Part shown: positions 11,253-27,565 of the stretch, piece after piece
Position numbering within the stretch: the first letter of the stretch is position 1
How the letters are laid out: each line of letters starts with the position of its first letter
Assembly (NCBI GenBank): GCA_035508175.1
Contig: DATJNL010000021.1
Span: 1 to 57,459, forward strand
Direction of reading: 5' to 3'
Length of the DNA: 57,459 nucleotides
DNA from: Myxococcales bacterium
GTDB lineage: Bacteria; Myxococcota; Myxococcia; Myxococcales; JAKAPL01
The notes under the pieces: generated by a model
The model's input: the letters and a program-made list of their open reading frames with translations, nothing else
Told to the model about the DNA's origin: nothing
Databases searched by the model: none
Translations under genes and position numbers: made by a program

Positions 11253-11387
11253 CCGCGCAGTCTAGCAGGCCGGCGAGGCCGCCTCGACAATCGCTTTCCG
11301 CTGCCAACGGCTGGAGCAAGACCTGCAGCCGTCGGAACCGGAAGGCCTGTGGCCGCGGTCGGTCGCTGCCATCCTCACCCAGGCGAC

Positions 11388-11400: not shown

Positions 11401-11403
11401 AAA

Positions 11404-12171
11404 ATGAGATATATTTCTGCGGTGCTCGACTACCTCGTCACCTCGAAGGCTCGCCGCCGGTTGCTGACGCTACTGTGGAGACAGGGGGCGTCCGGCTCGG
11501 CTTCTGCGCTGGCCCAGCAAGCGCACGTCGCCTTTGCGAGCGTGCACCGCGAACTGCAGGCGATGAAGCTGCTCGGCCTCGTCGTCTCGAGGCGGGAGAA
11601 CGCTGCCGAGGTCTTCCGAGCCAACGAGGCCTCGCCGTTTGCCCAGGTGCTGCACGAACTGTCGCGGCCGGTTCCATCGATGCTGGCTGCCGACCCTGCA
11701 GCGGTGCGTACGCGTGGCGAGCTGAGGACGCTTGGCGCTCCTCTCCTCGATCCCCCGGTCGATGTCTCGGAGGTCGAGGCCGCGCTCGTGCGAGGCGCCG
11801 CGTTGTCGCACCGGGATCCGACGGTCGCTCGCGTCCTGCCGCTGTGCTTCCATCGATCGGTGCGAGACCGGCACCTCGACGTCGACCGGCTCCTGCGCCT
11901 CGCCCGTGATTCGAGCGAAAAGCAGGCGGTCGGGTTCTTCCTGGATCTGACGGGATCGCTGTCGGGTGACCGGCGCCTGAAACGTTGGGCGTCACGCTTT
12001 CGGGATCGTCGATGCGCCGAGGGTGCGCGCAGCTTCTTCGTCGAATCCTCGCCGGCAGCGCGCGAAGCTGCGAGCCAGAACACACCGGCCGTGGCCAGGC
12101 GGTGGGGTTTGCGCATGAACATGGGCCTCGGCGCGTTCAAGTCGATGTACGAGAAGCACGTCGATGCGTAG
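11404..12171 (+). CDS. Winged-helix (ArsR/MarR-like) DNA-binding protein with an uncharacterised C-terminal domain; putative antitoxin or regulator
   Basis: The 255-aa ORF has an N-terminal wHTH-like stretch SKARRRLLTLLWRQGASGSASALAQQAHVAFASVHRELQAMKLLGLVVSRRE. Its 3' end overlaps the next gene by 8 nt (ATGCGTAG). Confidence 0.65.
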   Translation: MRYISAVLDYLVTSKARRRLLTLLWRQGASGSASALAQQAHVAFASVHRELQAMKLLGLVVSRRENAAEVFRANEASPFAQVLHELSRPVPSMLAADPAAVRTRGELRTLGAPLLDPPVDVSEVEAALVRGAALSHRDPTVARVLPLCFHRSVRDRHLDVDRLLRLARDSSEKQAVGFFLDLTGSLSGDRRLKRWASRFRDRRCAEGARSFFVESSPAAREAASQNTPAVARRWGLRMNMGLGAFKSMYEKHVDA

Positions 12172-12730
12172 CTACACGCCGGGAGACCTGCGCGTCTTCC
12201 TGAGAGCGGTGGACGCACATCTCGCGCGAACCGCCGAGCTCAAGGTCATGGGCGGAGGCGCCATCGCTCTCGCCTACGGTGTCCTCCTGAGCACCTCGGA
12301 CATCGACACGTTCGAGACGGATCTGGACGCCGTCGCAGACGCCATTCAGAAGGCGCAAGCGAGCACCGGGCTTCCCATCCAGGTGTCTCCGCTCGGCGGG
12401 AGCGTCGGCGACTGGCCCGAGAACAGCGGGGAGCGCTTGATTCGCGTGATGCCGGAGCTGCCGAGGTTGTCGATCTTTGCCCTCGAACAGCACGATTTGG
12501 CACTCAGCAAGAGCGTCCGAGGTTACGAGAACGACCTCGCTGCGATCGAGCAGCTACACGGGCGCCTCGCGCTCGACAGGGACGTCCTCGTGAGGCGCTA
12601 CGTGCACGAGATGGCCCACGCAATTGGTGACCCGGTTCGTCTCGATCGCAACTTCATCCTGATGATCGACCGTCTCTTCGGCGAGACCGCCGCTGAAGAG
12701 GTAGAGGTGCTGCTGGCCTCCCGCCGCTGA
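12164..12730 (+). CDS. Minimal nucleotidyltransferase (MNT/AbiEii/DUF6036-like)
   Basis: The 188-aa ORF carries a pol-beta NTase signature, GGGAIALAYGVLLSTSDIDTF (G[GS]-x9-13-DxD), and is translationally coupled to the wHTH gene. Confidence 0.7.
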   Translation: MRSYTPGDLRVFLRAVDAHLARTAELKVMGGGAIALAYGVLLSTSDIDTFETDLDAVADAIQKAQASTGLPIQVSPLGGSVGDWPENSGERLIRVMPELPRLSIFALEQHDLALSKSVRGYENDLAAIEQLHGRLALDRDVLVRRYVHEMAHAIGDPVRLDRNFILMIDRLFGETAAEEVEVLLASRR

Positions 12731-12824
12731 TTCTCGTGGCCAGCCCGTGAGACCTGGTTGGCGCGTTCGATGGGGGTCTTGCTCGGCCGATCCTGGAGGA
12801 ACTGCTTGTAGCGGTAGACGGGGC

Positions 12825-14810
12825 CTAGCCGGGGCAAATTCCCGCGTCGCCGCACGAGAAAGGAATGGCCGGCAGGCAACCGTAGCCGAGCACGCACTCG
12901 CCGAGGAAGCATGCCGGCGTTGGGCAATCGAGGTCGGCGCCGCACGGGCTGCCGGTCTCCGTGCAGGCCCCGGCGTCGGTGCAGGTATCTGCCGGGCAGT
13001 CGGCTGTCGTACGGCAACCGGCGGTCCCCACGAGGCCGCCGTCGGCACACCAGCACGGAGTTCCTACCAGGCTAGGGCCGCCGCAGGCGCAGATCCCGAG
13101 ATCCGCGGGGACGCCCAAGGGCGTGCACACGAAACCGCCTGGGCAAGCGCCAGAAGCGGAGCAGTCCGCCGCGCAGATGAACCCACAGCCTCCATCATCG
13201 CAGCCGTCGAGGTCCCGCTGCGCGGGGAGACAGGTGCCGCCCGCATTCAGGCAGGCCGTTGAAGCCCCAGGGGCACAGGTCAAGCACGCAGGGGCCGTCC
13301 GGGCACAATCGTACCCGCAGCGCCCTGCGTCGCAGGCCTGTCCGGCAGAGCAGGAAGCCCCACACGCTCCGCAGTTGGCGAGGTCGGCCTCCTCATTCGT
13401 GCAGGTCCCCGCGCAGCACGCGCCGCTCTCGCATTCGCCGGCACTGACGCAAGGCATGCCGAGGCCGCGCGTTGGTGCCGGAGCCGCGGCTGCAACCGGT
13501 AGAAGCTCCATGACCCGTCCGTCCTGGAAGCCTGCGTCGGGGGTCCCCGTGTCGTTCCAGAAGAGCGTCCCCGAGGTGGCGACCAGCGCCGGGGGGCTGA
13601 CGGACGGCTGTCCCCCGACCAGCAGCGTGGGCGCCCCTCCATCGATCCGGATCGATTCGATTCTCACGTCGGTCTGGGACAGCACGTTGTCGGTCCAGAA
13701 GATCGTTGTGCGGCCCAGCGCCAGGGTCCCTGGCCATGTCAGAGACGACGCCAGGGTGACGGTCGCGCCCCCGTCTCGGGCCACCGCCATGAGGGTGCCG
13801 TCTCCGGGTTGGGGGATGGCGCCCGGGACGCAGCCGTACTCGCCCAGGTTCAGCCAGTAGAGATTCCCTTGGTCCAATGTCAGAGCCGTGGGCTGGTGCT
13901 GGCCTGCTGCCAGCACGCGAGGCCGGCCGCCGGACAGGGGGCGAGCAAGGATGGCGCCATCCGTACACTTCGGAGGAGAGCCCGAGGCGGCCCAGTAGAG
14001 ATAGCCGTCGTCGATGACGAAGGCGGTTGCCCCACTGGCGAGCAGAACCCGTCCGCCATCCAAAGGATCAGCTCGGGGCAAGCGGACGATGTCCCCGGCC
14101 TGGTAGGGCGGTCCGGAGTACAGCCATTCGGCGTCGACGTAGGATCCTTGTTCCCCATGCGCCTGGACCAGAGAGAACGGGCCACCATCTAGCGATGTCG
14201 ACGCGATCCCATAGTTGGCCCCGAACCACCAGAGCGCCCTTCCGTCCACAAAGGGGGCTTCTGCCCATTGGTTCTCCTGGTTCTCCGCCGAGACCGGCGA
14301 GAGGCCTCCCCCCTCCAGGTCGACTTGCCAGACGATTGGCTCCCCGGGATTCGCGCCGAAATTCGTGCCAAACAAAGCCGGTCCCCAGAGGGCCAAGCCG
14401 CTGGCGGGCTGTTGGGTCACGGTGATCAGGCAACGCCCGCGAATGCAAGCACTGGGGCCAGCGTCCGTCGGAGACGCGGGGCACGCGAAGCCGCAGGCAC
14501 CGCAGTTCGCGGGGTCGGCCAGGGTGTCGACGCATGCACCTCCGCACGCCGTCTCTGCACCGCCGTCGCTCGGCGGGCAGGCGCATTCGCCCGCGGTGCA
14601 AACGCTCCCCGTGAGCGATGCCTGGCAATCGAGGTCGGATCCACATCCGCCATCCCCGCCGTCCCGCCCTCCGTCGGCACCCGGCGTTCGCCCTGCATCC
14701 TGCCCGCCATCCGTCTGCCCACCATCGGTCTGGCCGCCGTCCCCGGGCGGCGAAGGCGGCTTGCAGGCGGAAGCCACAACGGCCAGCAACATGAAGGCTG
14801 CGGGCTTCAC
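12825..14810 (-). CDS. Cys-rich lipoprotein with a beta-propeller (YWTD/LYW-type blades) and a C-terminal Cys-knot-like region
   Basis: The 661-aa ORF has a GTG start and the lipobox VVASAC. Blade signatures are GYLYWAA, GNLYWLN, TTIFWTD and GTLFWND. The motif NCGACG-x2-C occurs twice. The start lies 3 nt after the upstream stop. Confidence 0.8.
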   Translation of the reverse strand: MKPAAFMLLAVVASACKPPSPPGDGGQTDGGQTDGGQDAGRTPGADGGRDGGDGGCGSDLDCQASLTGSVCTAGECACPPSDGGAETACGGACVDTLADPANCGACGFACPASPTDAGPSACIRGRCLITVTQQPASGLALWGPALFGTNFGANPGEPIVWQVDLEGGGLSPVSAENQENQWAEAPFVDGRALWWFGANYGIASTSLDGGPFSLVQAHGEQGSYVDAEWLYSGPPYQAGDIVRLPRADPLDGGRVLLASGATAFVIDDGYLYWAASGSPPKCTDGAILARPLSGGRPRVLAAGQHQPTALTLDQGNLYWLNLGEYGCVPGAIPQPGDGTLMAVARDGGATVTLASSLTWPGTLALGRTTIFWTDNVLSQTDVRIESIRIDGGAPTLLVGGQPSVSPPALVATSGTLFWNDTGTPDAGFQDGRVMELLPVAAAAPAPTRGLGMPCVSAGECESGACCAGTCTNEEADLANCGACGASCSAGQACDAGRCGYDCARTAPACLTCAPGASTACLNAGGTCLPAQRDLDGCDDGGCGFICAADCSASGACPGGFVCTPLGVPADLGICACGGPSLVGTPCWCADGGLVGTAGCRTTADCPADTCTDAGACTETGSPCGADLDCPTPACFLGECVLGYGCLPAIPFSCGDAGICPG

Positions 14811-14813
14811 AGG

Positions 14814-15362
14814 TCAGGGCAGGGCGAGGGTGCAATAGACGGTCGGAGGACCTGCGTCTCCGTACGGCAGCGTCTCGGCACAGCGGTAGCAAACGAGATC
14901 GCCGAGTGACCCCGCGTCGAAGCCGACGAGGCCGGTCGCCGGCGGAGCTTGCGAGGTGAAATAGGGCGCGCAGTCGCAGATGTCCCCCAGCGTGCACCCG
15001 TCCGGAACGGCGCGGCACGCACCCGGGTAGACGCCCGAATGTTCCTCGCTGGTCGCGAAGTACTCGCAGAGCTCGGCGGAGGGGCAAGCGAGGCACGGCG
15101 CCACGGTTTCCCCGCCGGCGTCGTCGACGTAGAGGCACTGGACCGGGCTACTGCAAGGCAGCAGGCCGGCGTCTCCACCGCTCGGGACGAACCAGCCAGT
15201 GCCAGCGTCCGGGAGCAGTACTCCGAAGCCGCCGGCATCCACGGAGCCGGGACCTACGGCCGCGGGGAGGTTCTCCGGCGCAAGCGAGTTGGGCGAGCAC
15301 GTGGTCAACAGGGGCAGAAAGCACGTCAGGGTGCCTAGCTTCCTACGAGCCACAAGCGGCAT
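14814..15362 (-). CDS. Cys-rich lipoprotein, function unknown
   Basis: The 182-aa ORF has the lipobox PLLTTC, 14 further Cys residues and good high-GC codon usage. Confidence 0.75.
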   Translation of the reverse strand: MPLVARRKLGTLTCFLPLLTTCSPNSLAPENLPAAVGPGSVDAGGFGVLLPDAGTGWFVPSGGDAGLLPCSSPVQCLYVDDAGGETVAPCLACPSAELCEYFATSEEHSGVYPGACRAVPDGCTLGDICDCAPYFTSQAPPATGLVGFDAGSLGDLVCYRCAETLPYGDAGPPTVYCTLALP

Positions 15363-15981
15363 TAGAACAAACGCCAGACGGGCAGGCTACCCCGCACCCG
15401 CCGCAGTTGGTGCGAGTTCCTATCGAAGAAGCGGGGTCACCCCCTTCGAAGGCGAACCAATTCCTCTCGACGAGGCAGTAGTTCTCTTCGAAGAGGAACG
15501 AGCTCCTCTCGCAGAAGCGGCCGTTCCTTTCGAAGAGGAACGAGCTCTTCTCGCAGAGGCGGTCGTTCCTTTCGAAGAGGAACGACCTCTTCTCGCAGAG
15601 GCGGTCGTTCCTTTCGAAAAGGAACGAGCTCTTCTCGCAGAAGGGGTTGTTCCCTTCGAAGATGAACCAGCTCCTCTCGCAAGGGAGGTGGTTCCTTTCG
15701 AAAGGGAACGATCTCTTCTCGCAGAAGCGGTCACTCCTTTCGAAGGGGAGCGATCTCCTTTCGCAGAAGCGGTCACTCCTTTCGAAAAGGAACGAGAGCC
15801 TCGCGCAGAAGCGTTCGTTTCTTTCGCGAGGGACCGACCTGTTCTCCCTCCGAACCGCCTTGCCGACCTTCCTGCACGGGTGCGGTGACCCACCGCAGCC
15901 TCGCATCATCGACCTTCGCTCGCGGGCTGGCGAGCGATCGTCGCCGACGAGCGGAGGACTTCGACGCCTTTGGCCTGACAC
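15343..15981 (-). CDS. Candidate 14-aa-repeat protein (FLFERNDRLCEKRS, about 10 copies) ending in an NCGGCGVACPSGVC motif; coding status uncertain, possibly a gene remnant
   Basis: The repeat part has high GC3 (13 of 14 codons per unit). The C-terminal motif matches the NCGxCGxxC motif of the downstream 661-aa protein. Its 3' end overlaps the next gene by 20 nt. It has no signal peptide, and the + frame that shares its wobble positions is also open. Confidence 0.3.
   Translation of the reverse strand: MSGQRRRSPPLVGDDRSPARERRSMMRGCGGSPHPCRKVGKAVRRENRSVPRERNERFCARLSFLFERSDRFCERRSLPFERSDRFCEKRSFPFERNHLPCERSWFIFEGNNPFCEKSSFLFERNDRLCEKRSFLFERNDRLCEKSSFLFERNGRFCERSSFLFEENYCLVERNWFAFEGGDPASSIGTRTNCGGCGVACPSGVCSNAACGS
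15417..15857. repeat. Array of about 21 units of 21 nt (about 10 units of 42 nt) alternating two palindromic unit types
   Basis: Type X is CGTTCCTTTCGAAGAGGAACG, with 7-bp arms CGTTCCT/AGGAACG around TTCGAAG. Type Y is AGCTCTTCTCGCAGAGGCGGT, with CTTCT-CGC-AGAAG. Boundaries at 15522, 15564, 15606, 15648, 15690, 15732 and 15774 are exactly 42 nt apart. Confidence 0.85.
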
Positions 15982-16046
15982 CGCGCCGAGCCCGCGAGAC
16001 GATCCTCTCGCCGCGCTCCGCGAACCGTGCTAAGCGCTGCGGCCCC

Positions 16047-16460
16047 ATGAGATCCTCGAGAGGGAAGATTGCGGGAGCCGCGCTGTGCCTCCTCTTGGCC
16101 TGCGCCTCCGACCCTTGCAGCGACGGCGCGTCCGCCGCGCAGAACGTCGCCAACTACATCGCGGGCTGCGCCGCCAGCGATCAGGGCTTCTTCGGCGGCT
16201 ACTCGCCCTGCTTCGATCAGAACGCGTGCGAGACGAACTTGAAGTCGTGCTCGCAGGCCGATCGCGCGGTGCTCGAGGCCACGGCGAAGTGCCAGAACGA
16301 GTACGCCGCGAGCAACGCGTGCACGTTCGCGGAGCTGCAAACCTACGACTCCTGCGCGGCCTCGGCGACCACGGCGGCCGACGGGGGGAGCGCTCTCTCG
16401 CCTGCCTGCGCCGAGGCCTTCTCGCAGAACCCTGGCAGCTGCGGGGCCGACGCCGGGTGA
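16047..16460 (+). CDS. Small Cys-rich lipoprotein
   Basis: The internal ATG at 16047 of track ORF 15885..16460 gives MRSSRGKIAGAALCLLLACASDPC, with lipobox LLLAC, and about 11 Cys in the mature part. Confidence 0.7.
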   Translation: MRSSRGKIAGAALCLLLACASDPCSDGASAAQNVANYIAGCAASDQGFFGGYSPCFDQNACETNLKSCSQADRAVLEATAKCQNEYAASNACTFAELQTYDSCAASATTAADGGSALSPACAEAFSQNPGSCGADAG

Positions 16461-16467
16461 GCGATCT

Positions 16468-16481
16468 TGACAAAAATGTCA
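16468..16481 (+). promoter_or_regulatory. AT-rich palindrome TGACA-AAAA-TGTCA (includes a TTGACA hexamer) upstream of the envelope operon
   Basis: The sequence cTTGACAAAAATGTCAgaca is a perfect 5-bp inverted repeat lying 120 nt upstream of the beta-barrel gene start. Confidence 0.3.
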
Positions 16482-16601
16482 GACAACCAGAGCGGGTACC
16501 CACTTGCCTTTGTGGGAGCCGGGTGCTACATGCGCGTGCTCTTGGATGACGAGCGCATGAAGTTTCGGACACGAACTGGTGGCGGCGTGGAGGTATTCCC
16601 C

Positions 16602-17678
16602 GTGAGAACGGCGGCCGTGGCCCTCTCGATCCTCTGCTTCGCCGGAACCGCCTTCGCCACCGCCGAGAAGGGCGACACCACCAAGGGTGAGCACGGCGAC
16701 ACGTCGGCGCCCTCGGACAAGTCCAGCGGTCCGTCGTCGAGCTCCGAGCAGGCCGGCGAGAGCGTGGACCGGAGCTTTGGCACCGGCGGTCCGCTCGCGC
16801 TCAAGCGCTTCAAGTTCGAGCTCGGCTGGGAAAACCATGCGTTCCTCGCGAGCAACAACTTCGAGGGCGACGGCTCGGTGGGCACCGGTGGCGCCGAGGT
16901 CGAGTTCAACTACTTCTACGCCGGCGCCACCTACTACATCACGCCGAGCGACAAGCTCGCCGTCGTCCTGGGCATGTACCTGTTCCACCTCTACAACCCC
17001 GGCGGTCCGGACGGCTTCAGCCCGGACGACGGGTTGCTGCGCTACACGCACCACTTCGCGCTGCCCTGGAAGCTCAACCTCGACGCCTCGGCGTCGGTGA
17101 GCGCACCGTTCTCGAACCTGAGCTACAAGATGGGCCTCATCACCGAGCCGCAGCTTCGCGTCTCGCTGAGCCGCACCTTCGCGAAATACGTCTACGTCGA
17201 CCTGCGCGTCTTCGGAGACTACTACTGGCAGCAGTACAGCAGCATGATCGGCGGCTCCACGCCGAACCCGTACGCGCGTGCCGGCGCTCGCCTCAACGTC
17301 GAGGGCCAGCTGCCCTACCACCCGGCCCTCGCGCTCGGCGTCGACGTCGAGACGGGCTACACCGCCTTCTACAACCCCACCGGCCAGCCGCTGGGGCAGC
17401 CCGGCGAGCCCAACGCCACCACGCCGGGCCCGTACTACGGCATCGAGACGAACCCCATCTACTCGGGGCAGCCCCTGCAGCAAGACTACGGCTACGACGT
17501 GTACTTGAAGTACGACTTCCCGAAGCTGGCCGGCGTCAAGGCCGAGGCGCTGGTGGCCTACGCCCAAGGCGATCCCACCGCCGGCTACACCACCGACCTC
17601 ATCGATGGCGCCTCGAACCTGTACCTGTATTACCCCGAGGCGTCGCAGGTCTACTTCTCGCTGGACCTCACCTACTGA
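16602..17678 (+). CDS. Outer-membrane beta-barrel protein (porin-like), family unknown
   Basis: The GTG at 16602 lies 8 nt after GGAGG. The signal peptide reads VRTAAVALSILCFAGTAFA/TA. The sequence has alternating-hydrophobic strands rich in Y/G and a C-terminal ...YFSLDLTY aromatic end. The alternative ATG at 16557 is less likely. Confidence 0.75.
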   Translation: MRTAAVALSILCFAGTAFATAEKGDTTKGEHGDTSAPSDKSSGPSSSSEQAGESVDRSFGTGGPLALKRFKFELGWENHAFLASNNFEGDGSVGTGGAEVEFNYFYAGATYYITPSDKLAVVLGMYLFHLYNPGGPDGFSPDDGLLRYTHHFALPWKLNLDASASVSAPFSNLSYKMGLITEPQLRVSLSRTFAKYVYVDLRVFGDYYWQQYSSMIGGSTPNPYARAGARLNVEGQLPYHPALALGVDVETGYTAFYNPTGQPLGQPGEPNATTPGPYYGIETNPIYSGQPLQQDYGYDVYLKYDFPKLAGVKAEALVAYAQGDPTAGYTTDLIDGASNLYLYYPEASQVYFSLDLTY

Positions 17679-17704
17679 AGCAAGCAACGGAACAAGGAGC
17701 GATC

Positions 17705-20700
17705 ATGCGCCGGTTCACTCTCGCGGTCTCCACCTCGCTGGTCACGCTGGCCTTCGGCTTCGCCGGCTGCAACGACGGCCCGAACCAGACCTACTCGCCG
17801 CCCGCGCCGAACGCGACGTGGAACGACGGCCGCGCGGCGCCCGGAGACGGCGGCCTGCCCACGGTGCCCGGCGGCACTGCCACCAGTGCCACGGCGCCCT
17901 TCGCGGCAGACGGCGGCGGCGCCCTCGGCTCGGGCGGACAGAACTCGAACGAGATCTGCACGCCGGCGGAGATCGCGGTGCAGAACGGGGTGCTGAACAA
18001 CGAACCGATCCTCGCTCCGAACCAGGTGGCCGGCCTCAACATCGCCGGGGCCGACGGCCAGGGCGGCACCACGTGGCAAGGGCTCACCATCGAGCAGGCC
18101 GAGTCTCGGCCGAACCTCGGGACCGCCATCACCAGCGGCCCGGGCATCACCAGCGCCGATCCGTTCATTCCCAACGCGGGCGGCAACTGCCAGGGCACGC
18201 CGGAGTCCGACCTGTTCGGCCAGGCCAACTACCTCAGCGTCTACTGGAACGGCGGCTCGGTCACGGCGGAATACTACGTGCCCACGCACAAGATCGACTA
18301 CCTGGGCATCGGCCCCGGCCTCGGTGGTCAGTACCAGGGCACTTTGACCATGACGAGCCTCGACGGCAGCACGACCTACACGGTCGCCGTGGACGGTGTC
18401 ACCCCGATCTACGTCCTCGACAACACCACCGGGACGAATACGGCCGTGCCGAATCTCGACTGGCTCGGGGCCAGCCAGGGCGTGCCGGCCTCCATGGCGA
18501 TCTTCGACAGCATGTACCGCGCTGCGATGGCCACCTTCTTCCCGGGCTATCCCACCGAGCCCGCGGGCCAGACCTGCAACCAGACCGGCGCCTGCATCAT
18601 CGGCACGTTCCCCTCGGGCAACTACGCCTACTTCGCCATCCAGCCCCTGGGCATCGCTCTGTGGGTGAACCCGTACACGTTCGGGACGATCACCTCGAAC
18701 GCCATCAACCGCATCGACGTGAACTTCGCGCAGATCATGAACTTCTCGTCGGCGAACCCGGTCCTCAAGCTGGACAACGTCGGCCCCACGACCATCCCGT
18801 TCTCGACGCCCAGCGGCCAGACATGCGCGCTGTCGCTGGGCATGAGCTATGGCGACTTCCTCAACGATTGTGTCGCCACTTCGACCGACGCCTCCGCCAA
18901 CACCACCGAGCAGCTCGAGCTCTTCAGCAACCTGTCGCACGACGAGGAGACGATTCAGTTCAATATCGTCGGCGTCGACATGAGCTTCTCCGCGATCGAC
19001 CGGCTCGGCTACGCGACACCCGCGAACCCGCCACAGGTCCTGGTCGACGCGCCGCTCTCGGGTTGCGCCACCGCGGCCAACGAAGGGGCGGCGGGCTGTC
19101 CACAGCCGGCGGACCAGTCGTTCGAGATGAACGTCGACCAGTACACCCTCGGCCTCCTCGCGAACGACTGGTCCTACAGCACCGACGCGAACGGTAATGT
19201 CGTCGCGCAGTACCAGACCCTGGCTGGCGCGGGCGCCCTGTACGACGACTACCGGACCCTCTCCATCGGTGCCATCGAGAGCGAGGTCTGCAGCAACAGC
19301 CCGACCAACCCGAACTGCGCGGTCTGGATCCCGGCTGATCCCGACGGCGGCACGCCGGCGCCGCCGACCCTGGCGCAGCAGATCCAGAGCTGCATCGCGC
19401 CCCGCGATTCCTCGGGGAACCTCGAGACGACCTCCTGGTTCAACGCCAACGTCGGCGCGGCCTACGTGGCCGGGATTCCGGGCGTGCTGCCAGTCGGGTG
19501 CACCGGCATGGAGCAGCTCCTCAGCGCCGACATCACGCCGAAGAGCGACGGCACCCCGAACTACGACGACCCGGTCGACATCGGCCCCATCGTCAGCCAG
19601 ATCGACCCGAACTACACGCTGGGCATGAAGATGGGCCACCAGACCGGCGCGTGGTGCATCGACGCCATGTCCCTCAACCAGATCGGCGCCCAGAGCGTCG
19701 TGACGCTGGGCGACGGGACCACCCAGCCGATGACCGGCAAGGAGGTCGTCGACCTCGCGGAGCAGGGGCCGGCGGGTGTGCAGGCCGACTTCAACGATCC
19801 CGCGGCGACGGTGACGACGCTCACGCTGCCGCAGTTCTGCGTGGAGAACAACATCCTGCCGCAGTCCGAGCTCCAGGTCATCGCCGCGGTCGCGGGCGGC
19901 AACCAGGCGCTCCTCCCCCTCGACATGCAGGGCGGCGCGGGCGGGACGCCCTCGGCGCGCTTCTTCTTCAAGCAGTACGGCTACGCGACCATCCAGACGC
20001 TGGAAGCGTCGACCGGTGTGGGGTCCTTCGGTCCCAACGGCTCGATCTCGATGCCGGTCTCGGAGTGGGGCCCGCCCACGGTCGGATCGCCGATGCCGAT
20101 CCAGCTCAACGACCTCTTCTTCGACTCGCTCGGGGACGGCCAGTTCGAGACCTTCGAGTACGTCGATCGCCGCTTCGTCTGCCCCGACGGCGCGAACGAC
20201 TGCGCCCCAGCGCCGCTGCCGCAGGGCGCCCCGACGCCGCCGGCGTTCACCTGCCCGGCCGGCACCTGCGACATGTCGGTCGCGAGCAACCACTGCCCGG
20301 CGCCTGTGGCGAACGGAATCGTGCCCCAGGTCCCGCTCTGCAATCCCAATGAGACTGCACAGCCGCCCACCGACGTGACCTTCACCGCCGACGTCAAGGA
20401 CGGCATCATGGATGCCTACGACGTCAACAGATACCTGTACCGCGGTGAGACCGCGCTCTACACCTCGATCCAGCCACAGGGCTTCGCCGTCGCGCAGGCC
20501 AGCAACGCCCTCTTCACCAACGTCTGGGGCAGCGCGCTGCTCAACTCGTTCGGCCCGGGGGCCGCAGGAATCGATGGTCTGCCCGATCTGACCGGGGCGA
20601 TCATCCATGCCTCGGACTACGCCGGCGCCATCGCCTATGCCTCGACCGGCGTCGGGACGCCGCTCACCCTCTCCTACACGCAAGCGCCCACTTCGGCTCT

Positions 20701-21268
20701 CACGGTCGATGGCACCTACGCCGGCCCCCAGCAGATCTTGCTGAATTACGAGGTGCCGGACGGCGGCTTCCCCGGCGTCGGTGGCGCGACGCCCTGGACC
20801 GAGATGGTCGACTGGACCCCGAACCAGCCGCTGAACGGGTTCGACGTCGCCGACTACGGCAACAGCATGCTGGACTACTTCGTCCAGACCGCCTCTGCCG
20901 ACTTCACCGGCATCACCGTGACCGGTCTGCTCGACTACAACATCGTCAACGGCGGCATGGAGGAGATGGCCGCCGAGAGCACCGACTTCCTCGGCGACGT
21001 CTTCATGTGCTACGAGCCCGCGGCCAACCCGCCGATCCTCGCGGTGCGCATGTACACCCCCACCCAGGCCGTCTTGAACTGGTTGAACTCCGTGCCCCAG
21101 GCGTACGCCGACTGCGGCATCGTGGTCCGCTGGAGTCCCTACGACACCTTCGTCAACCTGATCGACTCCACCCTGTACGGCGTACGGCTCCAGGTGACGC
21201 AGGGCGGCGGCCTCGGCCGCATCGTCGGCGCCCAGGTGTACGTGCCGAACCTTCCGTTCGAGGAGTGA
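17705..21268 (+). CDS. Large (1187-aa) lipoprotein with no recognisable domain
   Basis: An AAGGAG RBS precedes it and the lipobox is GFAGC. The sequence is N/T/Q/G/Y-rich and Arg/Lys-poor, with paired Cys residues, a composition typical of surface or extracellular proteins. Confidence 0.85.
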   Translation: MRRFTLAVSTSLVTLAFGFAGCNDGPNQTYSPPAPNATWNDGRAAPGDGGLPTVPGGTATSATAPFAADGGGALGSGGQNSNEICTPAEIAVQNGVLNNEPILAPNQVAGLNIAGADGQGGTTWQGLTIEQAESRPNLGTAITSGPGITSADPFIPNAGGNCQGTPESDLFGQANYLSVYWNGGSVTAEYYVPTHKIDYLGIGPGLGGQYQGTLTMTSLDGSTTYTVAVDGVTPIYVLDNTTGTNTAVPNLDWLGASQGVPASMAIFDSMYRAAMATFFPGYPTEPAGQTCNQTGACIIGTFPSGNYAYFAIQPLGIALWVNPYTFGTITSNAINRIDVNFAQIMNFSSANPVLKLDNVGPTTIPFSTPSGQTCALSLGMSYGDFLNDCVATSTDASANTTEQLELFSNLSHDEETIQFNIVGVDMSFSAIDRLGYATPANPPQVLVDAPLSGCATAANEGAAGCPQPADQSFEMNVDQYTLGLLANDWSYSTDANGNVVAQYQTLAGAGALYDDYRTLSIGAIESEVCSNSPTNPNCAVWIPADPDGGTPAPPTLAQQIQSCIAPRDSSGNLETTSWFNANVGAAYVAGIPGVLPVGCTGMEQLLSADITPKSDGTPNYDDPVDIGPIVSQIDPNYTLGMKMGHQTGAWCIDAMSLNQIGAQSVVTLGDGTTQPMTGKEVVDLAEQGPAGVQADFNDPAATVTTLTLPQFCVENNILPQSELQVIAAVAGGNQALLPLDMQGGAGGTPSARFFFKQYGYATIQTLEASTGVGSFGPNGSISMPVSEWGPPTVGSPMPIQLNDLFFDSLGDGQFETFEYVDRRFVCPDGANDCAPAPLPQGAPTPPAFTCPAGTCDMSVASNHCPAPVANGIVPQVPLCNPNETAQPPTDVTFTADVKDGIMDAYDVNRYLYRGETALYTSIQPQGFAVAQASNALFTNVWGSALLNSFGPGAAGIDGLPDLTGAIIHASDYAGAIAYASTGVGTPLTLSYTQAPTSALTVDGTYAGPQQILLNYEVPDGGFPGVGGATPWTEMVDWTPNQPLNGFDVADYGNSMLDYFVQTASADFTGITVTGLLDYNIVNGGMEEMAAESTDFLGDVFMCYEPAANPPILAVRMYTPTQAVLNWLNSVPQAYADCGIVVRWSPYDTFVNLIDSTLYGVRLQVTQGGGLGRIVGAQVYVPNLPFEE

Positions 21269-21271
21269 GCC

Positions 21272-24200
21272 ATGAACTGCACACATTTCGAGACCCGCGA
21301 CATGAACCGCATTTCGAGAGAGGACGGCACCATGGCTCACCGCATCCTGCGCCTCGTGGCCTTCGCGGCCGCGTTCCTGGCCACAGGGAGCTGCGTACAG
21401 ACGCGCCCGTCGCGTAACGCGGTCCTGAACGAGAACCAGTACGTCCGAAAGGACTTCCTGGTCGGCGCCGCGAACTCCACCACGCCCGACCCGGGCTGGT
21501 GGCTCAAGGGCACCATCGTCCAGACGTCCACGCCGAACCCGCTCGGCAGCTCCACCTTCGGGCTGTCGCCGGGCATCGACTCGGGCGCCATCCCGATCCG
21601 CTTCGTGATCACCGAGGACAAGCTGCAGATGGTGTCCACGCGCGAGGAATCGGCGACCGACCCGCAGTCGCCCGAGGTCACCCCGGCCGTGGTCAATGCC
21701 TGGCCCATCCAGAACGTCGACCTCATGTACTACGTCAACTTGGACGGCGAGCTGACGAACCAGTACGTCGTCAACCAGGAGGCCCCCTGGCAGCAGCGCG
21801 AGTGGGTCCAGGTCAACTTCGACAAGAACGACATGGCCGACCTGGCTCCGCTGGGCGAGGCCACCTGGAACCTGCTGAGCAACTGCGTCGACCAGGCCAA
21901 CGTCTCCACGACCCTCGTGCCGAACTCGTTCATCGTGGACGAGGCGAACAACTACATGCAGTGGACGGTGAGCGTCACCCTGCCGCTGATCTGGGATGAC
22001 CCGAACTGCACCTTCGCCTACGGCGACCTCGGCCAGGAGGCCGCCGCGCTCGGCAAGGAGAGCGTCACCTTCAACCTCATGTACTCGCTCGAGCGCATGA
22101 AGCCGCTGAACCAGGTCACGTACAAGCCGCTGACCATCGCCGAGAAGGACCCCATCCAGCACAAGTACGGCTTCCTGCAGAACATCACCCAGAACCTGGA
22201 CCCGAACACGGGCATGCTCGCTGGCCAGGAGCAGGTGATCCGCTTCGATCCCACGAAGCCCATCGTGTGGTACTTCTCGCAGGGCTTCGACGAGGCCTAC
22301 AAGCACTTCTTCACCGACCCGAACACCGGCATCGTGGATCGCACCAACGCGGTTCTCGAGGCCGCCGGGTCCGCCAAGAACTGCGGCACGGCGCAGGCGA
22401 GCGGCAACTGCGTCGAGGTTCACGACTACGACTACAGCTGCACCGGCTCGAACTGCTCCCCCGGCACCGTGCTCGCACAGGGCCAGGGACCGCGGCAGTA
22501 CGGCGACATCCGCTACAACTTCCTCACCTGGATGTCCGACCAGTTCTCGCAGGAGACCTTCGCCGGCGTCACGATCCCGGTGGTCGATTACCGCACCGGC
22601 GAGTCGATGGCGGCCAACATCGCCTTCAACACGTTCGCATTCCAGGACTTCTACCTGCAGCGCGTGAACGACTACCTGCTCAGCATCGGGGCCTACGGCA
22701 CCGATAACGGCCAGGCCTACAACCTGAACACGCCCGGCGAGTGGCCCACGGAGCCCACCTTTGCGGAGCCTCTCGGCGTGACCGACCCGACGACGGACCC
22801 GAACCTCGTCAACTGCACGGTCGCGGCGGCGCAGAACTCGTGCCCCATCACCGTGACGTACACCGATGCCACGACCAACCAGCCGACCAGCGAGACCCTG
22901 AACTGCTACCAGGGATCGACGCTGCCGATCGAATCTGTCGTCGACGCGGCGGTCCACAACGGCACTTCGACCGTGTTCGGCAAGATGCAGGACTACCTGG
23001 GGGAACCCAGCTCGATCTACGGCAACCTCGGGCCGGCGAATTTCATTGCCCCCACGAGTCAGACCAACGATCCGGACTTCTTCAACGCCTATTACACCTT
23101 GCTGCCCTACATCGTTTACACGGACCCGACGATGAACCCGTACGTGGTTCCGGAAGGCGGCAACGGAACCTTCGGGCCGCCCACCACCACGGACGCCTGG
23201 ACCGATCTGCAGAACGAGGTGGCGTTCCAGAACTGGGCCGCCCAGCTCAACGCCGGACAGGACCAGGGGCTCACCGGCGCCAACATGCCCAACGGCTGGC
23301 CTTACAACTACACGGGCGCTCAGGGTGGCGTGGTCGCCGCAGCGGCGGGCGCCAGCACGTTCCGCAACCTCGACCAGATGCACCACGACTACCAGTACCA
23401 CCTGATGCAGCGGAACATGGCGCACGGCATGCACCTCGACGGGCTCGACAGCCTGTCATTCGAGAGCCAGGCCGACCAGGTCGCCCGGAGCTGCGGCGTC
23501 GACACCGCGGGCGCGTGGCAGACCAAGGAGCAGTGGGTCAGCGATCTGACCTCCGCCTACTGGAACCAGGTCTTCATCCACGAGTTCGGCCACAGCCTCG
23601 GCCTGCAGCACAACTTCATGGGCTCGCTGGACGCGCCGCACTACGAGGCGTTCCCGGTGGGCGTCGACTCGAGCGGCAACCCCGCGACCCAGGCCGAGTG
23701 CGATCAGAACCCGATCCAGCAGGGCTGCGTGCCGGTCACCCACACCAGCTCGGTGATGGAGTACAACGCTTACACGGATCGCCTCGAGTTCCACACACCG
23801 GACTGGGGCGAGTACGACAAGGGCGCGATCGCCTGGATCTACGCGAACAACTCGGCCGACGGCACGCCCCCGAATGGGACGGCCTGCCAGAGCGCGGGCT
23901 GCAGCATCAGCGGCCAGAACAGCGCCACCTCGCCCTGGAACGACCCGATGGGCTTCGACTCGAGCGGCAATGAGATGAAGTTCCTCTTCTGCGACGAGTA
24001 CCACGAGAAATACACGCCGCTCTGCAAGCCCGACGACATGGGCCGGACGCCGAGCGAGATCACCGCCAACGCACTCGACACCTACGAGTGGCAGTACCAG
24101 TGGCGCAACCTGCGCAACTACCACAAGTACTGGGACGACTCGACCTACGCGAACACGCCCGATGCGCTCTTCTCGAGCCTGCAGAAGTTCGTCTCCATGT

Positions 24201-25183
24201 GGGCCTTCGACTGGAGCAACACCGAGATCGCGGTGGAACTGAGGCGCATCGGCATCACCAACCCCTGCGAGGGCGACGTCCAGCCGTCGGCCCAGTGCCC
24301 GATCGGCGGCCAGAGCGACCAGGATTACTACAACCAGCTCTCGAACAAGTTCGAGTCCGAAGTCTCGGCCTCGAGTCAGATGGCCGCGGCCTACCACATC
24401 GCCATGATCAACCAGGCATACTCGGAGCGGCCCGCTGCCACCACCTACGACCCCTACTACGGCGACGTCGAGCAACAGGGCATCATCCTCGACAAGTACT
24501 TCGCCATGCAGGACTTCGCGGGTCTCTGGCCGGTGACGAACTACGATCCGACGCAGTCGGCCGGTGCGTACCTCACCTGGTACGGCGGCGTCGGTGACAC
24601 GGCCTTCAACAACCTGGCCGAATGGGGCGTCACCACCATGCTCGGTGGCGTGATCAACGTGTTCCCGTACTTCCAGCCCACCACGGTGGCGCTGTTCGCG
24701 CAGGACACGCACGATCCGGCCTTCGATCCCGTCAGTCCCTTCGAGCGCGATTGGATCGGCGGGCACCAGTTCAGCCGCCTCGAGGACTTCCTGGCGTACT
24801 TCCAGGAGATCGCGGTCGACAACCAGTACACCGGCATGACCGGGTGCGTGGACCAGACGGCCGATGCGACACAGGGTCAAGCCGTGGCGTGCAATTGCAT
24901 CACCGCCGATACCTGCACGTACGACCCCCGCAACATCCCCGATCCGCAGAACGCGAACGAGTTCGTGGGCCCCGACGGCAAGCGCTACATCTGGGCGAAA
25001 ATCCAGGACAGGCAACAGTGGGTCGTCGCGGAACAAGACCGCAACATCGTGACCAACACGCTGCTCTACGAGTTCAACCTGGACGTGGTGGCCGGTCAGG
25101 ACGACGGCAACTTCCCGGGCGGCGCGTACGAGTACGAGCTCCCGATCAAGTTCACCGCCGATTCGTTCACCTACTTCAACTAG
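21272..25183 (+). CDS. Large (1303-aa) zinc metalloprotease lipoprotein (metzincin, DUF4953/Met-zincin-like)
   Basis: A GAGGAG RBS lies 6 nt upstream (alternative start at ATG 21332). The lipobox is LATGSC. HEFGHSLGLQHN at 23579-23614 fits HExxHxxGxxH, followed by SSVMEYN as a Met-turn candidate. Confidence 0.85.
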   Translation: MNCTHFETRDMNRISREDGTMAHRILRLVAFAAAFLATGSCVQTRPSRNAVLNENQYVRKDFLVGAANSTTPDPGWWLKGTIVQTSTPNPLGSSTFGLSPGIDSGAIPIRFVITEDKLQMVSTREESATDPQSPEVTPAVVNAWPIQNVDLMYYVNLDGELTNQYVVNQEAPWQQREWVQVNFDKNDMADLAPLGEATWNLLSNCVDQANVSTTLVPNSFIVDEANNYMQWTVSVTLPLIWDDPNCTFAYGDLGQEAAALGKESVTFNLMYSLERMKPLNQVTYKPLTIAEKDPIQHKYGFLQNITQNLDPNTGMLAGQEQVIRFDPTKPIVWYFSQGFDEAYKHFFTDPNTGIVDRTNAVLEAAGSAKNCGTAQASGNCVEVHDYDYSCTGSNCSPGTVLAQGQGPRQYGDIRYNFLTWMSDQFSQETFAGVTIPVVDYRTGESMAANIAFNTFAFQDFYLQRVNDYLLSIGAYGTDNGQAYNLNTPGEWPTEPTFAEPLGVTDPTTDPNLVNCTVAAAQNSCPITVTYTDATTNQPTSETLNCYQGSTLPIESVVDAAVHNGTSTVFGKMQDYLGEPSSIYGNLGPANFIAPTSQTNDPDFFNAYYTLLPYIVYTDPTMNPYVVPEGGNGTFGPPTTTDAWTDLQNEVAFQNWAAQLNAGQDQGLTGANMPNGWPYNYTGAQGGVVAAAAGASTFRNLDQMHHDYQYHLMQRNMAHGMHLDGLDSLSFESQADQVARSCGVDTAGAWQTKEQWVSDLTSAYWNQVFIHEFGHSLGLQHNFMGSLDAPHYEAFPVGVDSSGNPATQAECDQNPIQQGCVPVTHTSSVMEYNAYTDRLEFHTPDWGEYDKGAIAWIYANNSADGTPPNGTACQSAGCSISGQNSATSPWNDPMGFDSSGNEMKFLFCDEYHEKYTPLCKPDDMGRTPSEITANALDTYEWQYQWRNLRNYHKYWDDSTYANTPDALFSSLQKFVSMWAFDWSNTEIAVELRRIGITNPCEGDVQPSAQCPIGGQSDQDYYNQLSNKFESEVSASSQMAAAYHIAMINQAYSERPAATTYDPYYGDVEQQGIILDKYFAMQDFAGLWPVTNYDPTQSAGAYLTWYGGVGDTAFNNLAEWGVTTMLGGVINVFPYFQPTTVALFAQDTHDPAFDPVSPFERDWIGGHQFSRLEDFLAYFQEIAVDNQYTGMTGCVDQTADATQGQAVACNCITADTCTYDPRNIPDPQNANEFVGPDGKRYIWAKIQDRQQWVVAEQDRNIVTNTLLYEFNLDVVAGQDDGNFPGGAYEYELPIKFTADSFTYFN

Positions 25184-25201
25184 GACCGAGGAGACTAAAA
25201 G

Positions 25202-25429
25202 ATGGCCAAGATCTGCCTGCTCCTCGGAGCCCTGGGAACGCTGGCGCTCGGCGTGGCCTGCGGCCCCAACAACACGAACTGCCTCGAGCAGTCGTGCGTA
25301 CCGTCGGGCCCCTGCAACTGTGTCGCGCTCGCCGCGTGCACCACGGCCAACCAGGTCACCGAGACCTGCGGCGTGGGCATGGTCTGCTGTCCGCCGCTCG
25401 CGGACGGCGGCAACGGCGTCGGCGGCTGA
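25202..25429 (+). CDS. 75-aa Cys-rich mini-lipoprotein
   Basis: It has a GAGGAG RBS and the lipobox LGVAC. The mature peptide of about 55 aa has 9 further Cys (CLEQSC, CNC, CTT, CGVGMVCC). Confidence 0.7.
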   Translation: MAKICLLLGALGTLALGVACGPNNTNCLEQSCVPSGPCNCVALAACTTANQVTETCGVGMVCCPPLADGGNGVGG

Positions 25430-25444
25430 GAGGGCCGGAATGAA

Positions 25445-25592
25445 GGCCTCCCTCTCCCCTTCAGGGGAGAGGGCAGTGGTGAGGGCCCATCACCAGGCCT
25501 CCCTCTCCCCTTCAGGGGAGAGGGGTACTCCCTTCGCGCCCCTCACCAGGTCTCCCTCTCCCCTTCAGGGGAGAGGGCAGGGGTGAGGGGTA
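25445..25592. repeat. Three REP-like palindromic elements (perfect 10-bp stems) between convergent genes; likely a bidirectional terminator or mRNA stabiliser
   Basis: CCCTCTCCCC-TTCA-GGGGAGAGGG occurs at 25450-25473, 25501-25524 and 25554-25577. The third copy is nested in a longer palindrome, CCCCTCACC...GGTGAGGGG. Confidence 0.8.
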
Positions 25593-25608: not shown

Positions 25609-26862
25609 CTACGGCACCCGGCGCAGCGCGAGCGGGTACCCCGCGCAGCCGCCGCAAGGCTGAACGCCCACCGCGAAGAGATCGCCCTGCGGGTCACTCG
25701 CGATGGCGCTTATCGTCTCTGCGCCCGCCGGTAACGTCTCGGCCTGCCAGACTCCGCCCTGGTCCCGCAGGATCAAGGGCGGGTTCCCCCCCACCGCCGC
25801 CGCGGCCACGAACAGCTCACCTTCCTGGGGCTCGCAGATCGCGGTCAGCGGCGGCAGCGCGGGGGTTGGGTACGAGGTGAAGCCGCCGTCGACGCCGCCA
25901 TCCACGAAGCCGAACGCGAGGCCGTTCCCGTTGTCGTCATCGCCTACCGCCAGGACATCGCCCGTAGAACCGGCCGCGATGTCCGAGAGGTTGACCGCTC
26001 CGAGAACGGGAAACTCGGTCCAGACGCCCCCGTCCCGCTCGAGGATCACGGAGATCTGCGCATTGGACGAGTCCGCGAGCGCATAGATGAAGCCGTTCGG
26101 CCCGGTGACCATGCGGTAGACGCGGGTGAGGCCGCCCGGCAGCGGCTCGAGCGCGAGACCGCCGTCCGGGAGCAGATGAAGGGCGTTGGCGGCGGGGATG
26201 CCGGCGGCGACGGCTTCGTTGGGCCCGAGGCCGACGACCGCCTGGAGCTCCGAGAGCGGCGGACCGGCATCGAGCCCAACCGCCTTGAGGCCTCCATCGA
26301 GCCGGCCGGCCACGAGCAGCGCCGTGCCGCCGTCGACGGCCCCGGCTGCGAAAACGTCGCCCGAGGAATCTGCCCAGACGCCGAGCAGTGCGGAAGCAGG
26401 CGGAGTGCCCGTGACGGGGGACCAGCCCGCATCCCCGCTGCGTGATACGAGCGTCCCGAGCGCGGGAGCGGTACCAGCGGCGACCTGCACGGTCGGCGAC
26501 GGGGTGGAGAGCGCAGTCAGGCCGATGATGCCCGTGCCGCCCTTGACGGCTTCCTGCACCCACTGCGCCCCGTCGCTGGGGAAGCCGCTGCCGCCGGTCG
26601 TCCCGCCGGACACTCCCGCATCCGGCACGCAGAGCCCCGAGGACGGGTCGCAGATGTCGTTCGCATCGCAGCAGGGGAACGTGGGCTCGCAGGCGGTGCC
26701 GGGCGGCGCGCACGTCGGATTGAGACCGCCGTCGAAGCCGGCGTCGAAGCCGCCGTCTGGCGCTCCAGCGTCGAAGCCGGCGTCCGGGTTCGAGGAAGAG
26801 CTGCAGGCCGTCAGCACCGCGGCGCCGAGGCAGGGGAGCAGAAGACCGAAGCGGGTTCGCAT
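25609..26862 (-). CDS. Lipoprotein with an N-terminal Cys-rich segment and beta-propeller-like repeats (GD[VL]FA[AV]G)
   Basis: The internal ATG at 26862 gives MRTRFGLLLPCLGAAVLTAC with a lipobox. Blade-like motifs recur: GDVFAAGAVDGG, GDVLAVGDDDNG, GELFVAAAAVGG and GDLFAVGVQ. Confidence 0.75.
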   Translation of the reverse strand: MRTRFGLLLPCLGAAVLTACSSSSNPDAGFDAGAPDGGFDAGFDGGLNPTCAPPGTACEPTFPCCDANDICDPSSGLCVPDAGVSGGTTGGSGFPSDGAQWVQEAVKGGTGIIGLTALSTPSPTVQVAAGTAPALGTLVSRSGDAGWSPVTGTPPASALLGVWADSSGDVFAAGAVDGGTALLVAGRLDGGLKAVGLDAGPPLSELQAVVGLGPNEAVAAGIPAANALHLLPDGGLALEPLPGGLTRVYRMVTGPNGFIYALADSSNAQISVILERDGGVWTEFPVLGAVNLSDIAAGSTGDVLAVGDDDNGNGLAFGFVDGGVDGGFTSYPTPALPPLTAICEPQEGELFVAAAAVGGNPPLILRDQGGVWQAETLPAGAETISAIASDPQGDLFAVGVQPCGGCAGYPLALRRVP

Positions 26863-27565
26863 GACGACCATCCTAGCGCAGCTCTCGGCTGCCCTGGCCA
26901 TTCAAGTGATTGACCGCTCGCCGCTTCGGCAGTACGGGAGGACGGTGGCCGTCGTCACCCCCCAGCGGCGGGTGCAGCTCCTGGGCCTGTTCACCCGCGG
27001 GCTCGCGCACGAGGCGAGGAACGCGCTCAACGTGATGGCGCTGCACGTGCAGGCGCTCTCGGACCGCGGGCGCGCGGGCCGGCCGCCGGCGGACGAGGGA
27101 ATCGACCGGTCCGTGCAGGCGCTGCGGGCGCAGATCGGGAAGGTCGATCAGCTGATCACCCGGTTCTGTCAGTTCGCCGTGCCGAGGGCTTCGCACGCGC
27201 CTGCGGCGGAGCTGGCCGAAGTCCTGTCGGCGCTCGTGGGCCTCTGCGAGGTCGAAGCCCGGCGCGCCCACGTGACGCTGACCGCGGCGCTCGAACCGGG
27301 GCTGACCGCGGCGGCCGGCGTCGACGACCTGCTCGCCGATCTGCTGCCCCGGCTGCTCGAGCTTCCGGGGCTCGAGGGCTCGGCCCTCCGCGTCTCGCTC
27401 GCGGCTCGGGGGCCGGCGGGCCGGCTCGACCTGGAGGTGGGTGCCCCGCTTCCTGACTCCCTCACCGCGGCCGCGCAGGAGCTGGCCCGGCGCGCCGGCT
27501 GCGAGGCGAGCCACGAGGAACGCAGCCTTTCTTTCAGGTTTCCCGTCTCACGCCGGGCGCGTTGA
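26861..27565 (+). CDS. Short cytoplasmic histidine-kinase-like protein with an H-box but a degenerate ATPase domain
   Basis: The HisKA H-box FTRGLAHEARNALNVM is present. I saw no clear N, G1 or G2 box in the C-terminal half. The start is uncertain; ATG 26861 overlaps the divergent gene's ATG. Confidence 0.55.
   Translation: MTTILAQLSAALAIQVIDRSPLRQYGRTVAVVTPQRRVQLLGLFTRGLAHEARNALNVMALHVQALSDRGRAGRPPADEGIDRSVQALRAQIGKVDQLITRFCQFAVPRASHAPAAELAEVLSALVGLCEVEARRAHVTLTAALEPGLTAAAGVDDLLADLLPRLLELPGLEGSALRVSLAARGPAGRLDLEVGAPLPDSLTAAAQELARRAGCEASHEERSLSFRFPVSRRAR

Follow-up and report, generated by a model that had tools for sequence, protein, structure and literature searches.

The dentilisin protease of Treponema denticola is encoded by a single operon, prcB-prcA-prtP, whose products are lipoproteins, and the accessory lipoproteins are needed for the acylated protease; the complex is outer-membrane (OM)-associated and surface-located, and Msp, a barrel protein, interacts with it (PMC8167434). 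In the Slam, or type 11 secretion (T11SS), systems a dedicated DUF560 barrel is encoded beside its surface lipoprotein cargo (PMC8406197, PMC12282271). Myxococcus xanthus exports the lipoprotein zinc protease FibA to the matrix (PMC3222651), and CglB is an OM lipoprotein adhesin of the Glt gliding machinery of the same organism (PMC9946355). How myxobacteria place large lipoproteins and proteases at their surface is poorly understood, and the question matters for predation and matrix biology. Here we describe a gene set, B-C-D, in a 57,459-nt stretch of DNA from a Myxococcales bacterium (assembly GCA_035508175.1, contig DATJNL010000021.1), the whole of which we call the window. The set encodes a small predicted OM beta-barrel protein, a large lipoprotein without known domains and a metzincin lipoprotein; it is conserved and has no described counterpart, and its components are familiar kinds of envelope protein. 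Together with the small genes on either side, A and E, the locus reads as follows (aa, amino acids):

16047-16460, plus strand: gene A, Cys-rich lipoprotein of 137 aa, probably a separate unit
16602-17678, plus strand: gene B, predicted OM beta-barrel protein of 358 aa, with its start corrected to GTG 16602
17705-21268, plus strand: gene C, lipoprotein of 1187 aa with no known domain
21272-25183, plus strand: gene D, metzincin lipoprotein; 1303 aa when read from the first ATG, 1283 aa when read from 21332
25202-25429, plus strand: gene E, Cys-rich lipoprotein of 75 aa, a lineage-specific accessory

The preliminary description of this DNA had proposed a tightly coupled envelope operon and had made the proposal depend on whether the genes occur together elsewhere. 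They do. We collected 83 related loci (cited by L numbers) and scored all of their open reading frames (ORFs) against B, C and D profiles; a scan of a genome collection, queried with a single protein, returned 2 loci, and an alignment query would reach further. Pairing of C and D was counted at the 68 D N-termini that have at least 600 nt of upstream DNA. At 63 of these junctions C ends no more than 400 nt upstream of the lipobox Cys of D, the five exceptions being the second copy in the D-D tandem of L003, and L020, L074, L080 and L081 (only ~860 nt of flank). From the C stop to the lipobox Cys codon of D the median distance is 99 nt, which corresponds to an intergenic gap of roughly 10-40 nt, and the pairing persists at identities to the window proteins as low as 25% for C and 40% for D. 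C-D is thus a family-wide conserved gene pair.

The linkage of B was counted in the 22 loci with at least 1.5 kb of flank on both sides. B is adjacent and on the same strand in 15 of them, lying downstream of D in 12 and upstream of C in 3, the clade of the window included. Because the linkage is kept in two gene orders, it points to selection on linkage or co-expression rather than to inherited synteny. Among 11 database homologues of B (the window's own protein excluded) at least five share a contig, as matched by its length, with a D homologue, and the B family has so far been seen only with the C-D module. All related loci have a GC content of 61-70%, and the named relatives are all metagenome-assembled genomes assigned to Myxococcales, Polyangiaceae or 'Deltaproteobacteria'. 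The cluster is conserved in uncultured soil myxobacteria, and the module family appears restricted to one high-GC lineage.

A search for other conserved neighbours across the related loci found only lineage-specific synteny. The module has undergone tandem expansion in L003 (positions 1-18520 of a 1.18-Mb contig), where a partial C and a D are followed by a 162-aa ORF and then by C-D-D-B, and L015 and L055 have a second module copy nearby. In the clade without an adjacent B, a gene for a thioredoxin and tetratricopeptide repeat (TPR) protein lies just downstream of D in convergent orientation (L035 6486-8129, L042 8718-10067; also L033, L043-L045 and L071); its product could assist disulfide formation in the Cys-rich C and D. 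Directly upstream of C in seven loci, in either orientation, we noticed a gene for a ~470-560-aa protein without a Pfam match (L004 4906-6519; L009, L011, L030, L034, L050 and L078), which may be a further accessory component.

The motifs that identify D as a protease are located as follows:

23579-23614, plus strand: zinc-binding motif HEFGHSLGLQHN, D residues 770-781
23747-23764, plus strand: Met-turn SSVMEY, D residues 826-831

When 20 diverse homologues are aligned, H770, E771, H774, G777, H780 and N781 of the first motif and S827, M829, E830 and Y831 of the second are invariant. The pattern HExxHxxGxxH is present in 58 of the 61 full-length D ORFs of the related loci, and its extended form HExxHxxGxxHN in 118 of 120 database homologues. 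Searched against Pfam, D scores 36.0 bits with PF16313 (DUF4953, 'Met-zincin'; gathering cut-off 24.2), and all 20 aligned homologues pass the gathering score. The alignment to this model is not full-length, covering only positions 7-38 of 316, and the remaining ~1200 residues of D gave no domain match in Pfam and PDB searches; the PDB matches, to matrix metalloproteinases and serralysins, are confined to the zinc helix. We considered D as a matrixin (M10, PF00413) and rejected this, as the score, 22.1 bits, falls short of the cut-off (24) and the protein has no PRCG, hence no PRCGxPD cysteine switch. The Pfam search also gave no similarity to M48. We assign D to the metzincin clan; its membership of DUF4953, an uncharacterised family, is marginal. 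It has more than 300 full-length homologues (40-74% identity), none functionally annotated, and in the literature library searched nothing was found on DUF4953, DUF5117 and PF16313.

Three start codons are candidates for D, at 21272, 21302 and 21332, and they leave a C-D gap of 3 to 63 nt. Signal peptides in the family are 20-26 aa long and a Met aligned to M21 is nearly invariant, so that the family alignment favours the start at M21 (21332) and the 63-nt gap. The Cys predicted to be lipid-modified is C41, which is invariant, with a relaxed -3 position. Analysis of the junctions in 63 loci showed that it opens a near-invariant family-wide motif, CV(A/Q)(D/T)RPSRN(G/A)V(F/L), which in the window reads C-V-A-D-R-P-S-R-N-G-V-F (21392-21430, CVADRPSRNGVF).

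At the N-terminus of C, a lipobox FAGC is followed by a near-invariant C-(E/N)-D-G-P-N-Q-T-Y and a low-complexity tether of 45-64 aa. Its lipid Cys, C22, is at least 90% conserved in the family alignment, again with a relaxed -3 position. The N-terminal motif was seen in more than 50 loci, and its longer form, C-E-D-G-P-N-Q-T-[YF]-x-P (17768-17800 in the window), is near-invariant. Lipoprotein N-termini after the lipid Cys are usually variable tethers. The conserved motifs of C and D are therefore unusual and, judged from their conservation, possibly act as a sorting or docking signal; they are testable as such. C had no match in Pfam, NCBIfam or PDB, whether searched as a single sequence or as a profile. 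An exhaustive profile search placed 621 representative clusters in its family. An AlphaFold2 (AF2) model built from 16 sequences was poor (mean predicted local distance difference test score, pLDDT, 55), and Foldseek of this model against PDB returned nothing significant, the beta-propeller-like matches having E>=0.006 and a template-modelling (TM) score <0.15. The beta-rich C-terminus is the best-conserved part of the protein, and the model is too poor there for a fold assignment that could be compared with the C-terminal 8-stranded barrel domain of Slam cargo. We also considered C as a degenerate paralogue of D and rejected the idea, since BLASTP and hhalign showed nothing past the lipobox. 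The C family is an undescribed orphan family.

B consists of a signal peptide (AFA|TA), a disordered N-terminus of ~45 aa rich in Ser, Gly and Glu, 12 predicted strands and a C-terminus ending in FSLDLTY. Searches by sequence and profile found no match to Pfam or PDB, and neither B nor 23 homologues had a Pfam match at E<=1. In the AF2 model (pLDDT 57.6, predicted TM score 0.60, strands at 70-84) the ~290 barrel residues form 12 long antiparallel strands, joined by turns (2-6 residues) and loops (11-34 residues) in alternation. This is the classical OM pattern, with short turns on the periplasmic side and long loops outside. All 50 Foldseek matches listed for the model were membrane beta-barrels, almost all from the bacterial OM, and the leading ones (E 1e-4 to 1e-3, target TM 0.4-0.6) were NanC, FapF and the intimin beta-domain; the best was the 12-stranded porin NanC (2wjq; E 1.4e-4, target TM 0.61). 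Every full-length homologue (26 of 30; the remaining four are interrupted by contig ends) has Tyr or Phe as its C-terminal residue, and no hydrophobic helix was found after the signal peptide. The protein thus combines a signal peptidase I site and a C-terminal aromatic residue with what the model predicts to be an even number of antiparallel strands, and we assign it, with moderate confidence, an OM barrel fold. The porin NanC, the secretion channel FapF and the passenger-translocating domain of intimin match the model about equally well. Because these matches have three functions (porin, amyloid secretion channel and passenger translocation), the fold leaves the function of B unfixed. Among the external loops, L2, L3 and L6 are conserved like the strands and L1 and L5 are variable, a pattern too weak for use; in composition B is poor in basic residues.

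C and D stand out from the rest of the window. We compared their composition with that of 15 other window genes and found Arg at 1.5-2.4% (8.1% in the others), Asn at 6-7% (1.9%), Thr at 8-9% (4.4%) and Tyr at 3.8-5.1% (1.6%); overall Asn, Thr, Gln and Tyr are enriched two- to three-fold. Each of the two proteins has 23 Cys residues, and Arg and Lys are extremely depleted. Between 17000 and 25000 the GC skew is strongly negative (-0.07 to -0.15) and GC is 0.64-0.69, against 0.70-0.77 elsewhere in the window, both of which are most simply explained by codon usage rich in Asn, Thr, Tyr and Gln. GC at third codon positions (GC3) is 0.91-0.93 in the frames of A to E, as expected of coding sequence. 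A 1920-aa ORF on the minus strand (17672-23434) was dismissed as a high-GC shadow rather than a gene, as GC3 marks the plus frames as the coding ones.

The genes of the module are closely spaced, with gaps of 26 nt between B and C, 3 nt between C and D (from the first ATG of D) and 18 nt between D and E. AAGGAG precedes C, and GAGGAG precedes both D and E. The predicted cleavage or lipobox sites are LLAC|A in A, AFA|TA in B, FAGC|N in C, TGSC|V in D and GVAC|G in E. The preliminary description had already listed these plus-strand ORFs, the gaps of 26, 3 and 18 nt, GGAG-type ribosome-binding sites, the three lipoboxes of C, D and E and the AFA/TA site of B, all of which we found as claimed apart from the start of B. 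Its reading of the genes as a co-oriented, tightly spaced envelope unit also stands, with B-C-D as the core. The same is true of its view of C and D as Arg-poor and rich in Asn, Thr, Gln and Tyr, and of C as an orphan. D had been called a metzincin, which agrees with the invariant zinc motif and Met-turn and with the PF16313 score, and B a barrel lacking a plug or TonB box, in keeping with the AF2 and Foldseek results and the lack of any Plug or TonB_dep_Rec match.

We aligned the region 5' of B with three close relatives. Two elements were seen there:

16468-16481, plus strand: palindrome TGACA-AAAA-TGTCA, overlapping a TTGACA hexamer at 16467-16472
16503-16532, plus strand: promoter-like block, CTTGCCT, a 17-nt spacer and TGC-TACATG

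The block is kept in all four aligned sequences as CTTGC[CT]TTT and TG[CG]TA[CG][AG]AG. The palindrome, present as the preliminary description had noted (TGACA-N4-TGTCA), is kept in the form TTGAC-N-AAA-N-TGTC in L083 and L082 and is absent from L001; lying upstream of B, it is a candidate site for an operator or activator. A generic sigma-70 scan gave no matches and scored none in the block, and from 15000 to 17700 there was no sigma-54 promoter (TGGCAC-N5-TTGCW), even when 2 mismatches were allowed. In ~10 loci the module has, upstream of it, genes for sigma-54 activators of the NtrC type, with an FHA or receiver domain followed by Sigma54_activat and HTH_8 (for example L082 851-2482 and L041 3120-4466; also L007, L018, L019, L034, L060 and L078). 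The start of B was placed at GTG 16602 because GGAGG at 16589-16593, 8 nt before a GTG/TTG start, is kept in the three relatives; B read from this codon is identical to the database protein P0137. With a conserved promoter-like block of its own between A and B, the transcription unit is predicted to be B-C-D-E. A, which had been counted with the operon in the preliminary description, is probably a neighbour outside the unit, since the 141-nt gap between A and B contains that block and a homologue of A was found only in L083 (67% identity).

E has six invariant Cys residues beyond its lipid Cys C20, which is also invariant (with a relaxed -3 position), and it had no match in PDB or Pfam. Homologues directly 3' of D were confined to the closest clade, where L082 and L001/L002 have them and L083 has two copies in tandem. 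This does not support E as a core inhibitor or chaperone, the role that had been suggested for it.

Our working proposal, in which we place about half of our belief, is that B-C-D, with E, would form one transcription unit for an OM-anchored protease complex of Polyangia-type myxobacteria. With its intact active site, D is predicted to be a catalytically active metzincin, and C would be its obligate non-catalytic lipoprotein partner, which might bind substrate, act as a scaffold or stabilise D in the way that PrcA and PrcB serve PrtP in dentilisin. Both proteins are predicted to be lipidated and would then be delivered to the OM. In M. xanthus, Lys at +2 causes inner-membrane retention and Ala at +7 is a matrix signal (PMC3222651). 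C and D have neither, which suggests that they are OM lipoproteins, and their composition, poor in Arg and Lys and rich in Cys, Asn, Thr and Tyr, suggests exposure outside the cell. The complex would most likely act at the cell surface, degrading extracellular proteins or those of prey. B, a 12-stranded barrel dedicated to C-D, would be their membrane partner; E would be a disulfide-knotted mini-lipoprotein that may inhibit D or act as an immunity factor in this lineage. A physical C-D-B complex, its OM and surface location, its substrate and the roles of B and E are what we infer from these data. For B, we tentatively and slightly favour docking or surface presentation over a channel for cleavage products, itself a possible role though on the unlikely side; the remaining weight goes to a B that has no mechanistic link to C-D.

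Several observations weigh against this proposal. Adjacent B is absent, with no substitute, from 7 of the 22 well-flanked loci, which belong to a divergent clade; B is therefore not obligatorily linked to C-D. E occurs in only ~5 loci. The models of B (pLDDT 57.6) and C (pLDDT 55) are of low confidence, and the best structural match that the model of B gives is a diffusion porin, NanC. A 12-stranded barrel is too narrow for folded 1200-aa proteins. If the tether of C threaded through B, its length should differ between loci with and without B, yet the median is 48 aa in both, so that threading gains no support. The complex, its surface exposure and its substrate are inferred throughout, and the sorting rules applied to C and D come from M. 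xanthus, which belongs to a different myxobacterial class.

The alternative that best survives, though we think it rather unlikely, is capture and import, in which C and D bind and cut extracellular polymers and B is a product-specific passive channel for the fragments. The logic would be that of the KdgM/NanC porins encoded beside catabolic genes, or of RagAB/SusCD without TonB. The rank of NanC among the Foldseek matches of B (E 1.4e-4, target TM 0.61) speaks for it, and an accessory porin would fit both the third of loci that lack B and the varying position of B in the cluster. NanC has charged tracks. B, however, is poor in basic residues, unlike NanC, and it has no sequence match to KdgM/NanC or to any porin family; we rejected its membership of the KdgM/NanC family because there is no Pfam match and the similarity to 2wjq is at the fold level. 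A family so far seen only beside the C-D module also sits poorly with this alternative, as does the fact that general porins normally suffice for small peptides.

The reading with the greatest novelty is that B-C-D is a previously unrecognised surface-lipoprotein presentation system of Myxococcota, in which B would recognise the post-Cys motifs and expose or tether the ~1200-aa C and D. We consider this improbable.

Our doubt is slightly greater about a periplasm-facing role in quality control or remodelling, with C and D on the inner leaflet of the OM processing periplasmic or OM proteins, as do the lipoprotein metalloproteases BepA, YcaL and LoiP, and with B as a substrate or regulator. Default Lol sorting does put lipoproteins on the periplasmic face, the surface exposure of C and D is itself a prediction, and the thioredoxin-TPR gene adjoins the module in the clade that lacks B. 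Against this, housekeeping proteases of the periplasm do not typically combine a size of ~1200 aa with extreme depletion of Arg and Lys and richness in Asn, Thr and Tyr, Pfam gave no M48 similarity, and the apparent confinement to a single high-GC lineage, with tandem expansion of paralogues (L003), is a pattern seen more often with niche or secreted functions. Least probable of all is that C and D are released proteins exported by a general pathway (type II secretion as for PulA, or the FibA route), with B a co-regulated OM protein that has no mechanistic link to them. In its favour, the acidic +2/+3 residues of C (C-E-D) recall the signal by which PulA avoids the Lol pathway, and B is missing from 7 of 22 loci. 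FibA is a precedent for the export of a lipoprotein metalloprotease to the matrix by a myxobacterium (PMC3222651). Against it, C and D lack the +7 Ala matrix signal, and the linkage of B in two gene orders implies selection for co-expression.

The 3' boundary and the flanks of the locus contain further features. At the end of the unit lies a repeat array:

25444-25589, no strand: 53-bp repeat, 2.8 copies, with a perfect 10-bp GC-rich stem in each unit

Three exact copies of CCCTCTCCCC-TTCA-GGGGAGAGGG occur at 25450-25577, with 0 expected by chance; their three exact 10-bp stems are the triple hairpin that the preliminary description had placed at the end of the unit. The array sits between the convergent genes E (plus strand) and 25609-26901 (minus strand), and is likely a terminator or an array resembling repetitive extragenic palindromic (REP) elements. 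The repeat is absent from all 83 related loci, so that the array is local and lies outside the module; L083 has a different repeat at this place, of 168 bp in 2 copies. On the other side, a 42-bp tandem repeat (15462-15826, 8.7 copies, 82% matches), whose units contain short palindromes, lies between A and a minus-strand ORF (14814-15362); it occurs nowhere else in the window and has no equivalent in L083. A 661-aa ORF (12825-14810, minus strand) matches a Stig1-like Cys-rich family weakly (E 1.8e-4, short of the cut-off), and a homologous 630-aa gene may occupy the equivalent position in L083. The neighbouring genes in the window have no relation to the module; they comprise an rpoA/ribosomal cluster, a PGA_cap gene and genes for a histidine-kinase-GGDEF protein, a response regulator and ThiC.

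The module offers a defined, widely conserved three-gene target, with 621 clusters in the C family and more than 300 full-length homologues of D, and it ties a large orphan family, C, to a firm functional partner. Should B-C-D prove to be a presentation system, it would join Slam/T11SS and the Bacteroidota export signal as a third solution; should it be no more than a surface protease with an accessory porin, hundreds of genes now called 'hypothetical' in soil and peat metagenomes would still gain a useful annotation.

A likeness to SusCD or Slam had been suggested in the preliminary description, and at the family level it does not hold, as no Plug, TonB_dep_Rec, SusD or DUF560 match was found at E<=1; what is left is a likeness of logic. 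With SusCD/RagAB the module shares a barrel clustered with large lipoproteins and a possible role in nutrient capture, whereas B, C and D have no matches to Plug, TonB_dep_Rec or SusD/RagB domains, and B has ~290 barrel residues against the ~1000 residues of the SusC protein. As in Slam/T11SS, B is encoded beside the lipoproteins that it would serve. Slam barrels have 14 strands, however, and the model of B has 12; B and its 23 homologues lack DUF560 and a TPR region (Pfam, E<=1), and T11SS is described in Proteobacteria, outside of which the lineage of the module lies. The resemblance of B to the 12-stranded OM barrels NanC/KdgM, FapF and the intimin beta-domain is one of fold only, drawn from a low-confidence model and without sequence similarity. 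D has the HExxHxxGxxHN zinc helix in common with the PF16313 zinc metalloproteases, and the rest of D is unmatched. FibA and CglB/Glt are myxobacterial precedents and are set apart from the module by gene sets and domain types. Dentilisin differs in that PrtP is a subtilisin and D a metzincin with no sequence relation, C and D are 2-3 times larger and come from another phylum, and Msp is encoded outside the prcB-prcA-prtP operon. As a lipoprotein operon for a surface protease complex that interacts with a barrel protein, dentilisin is nonetheless the nearest functional precedent for the module.

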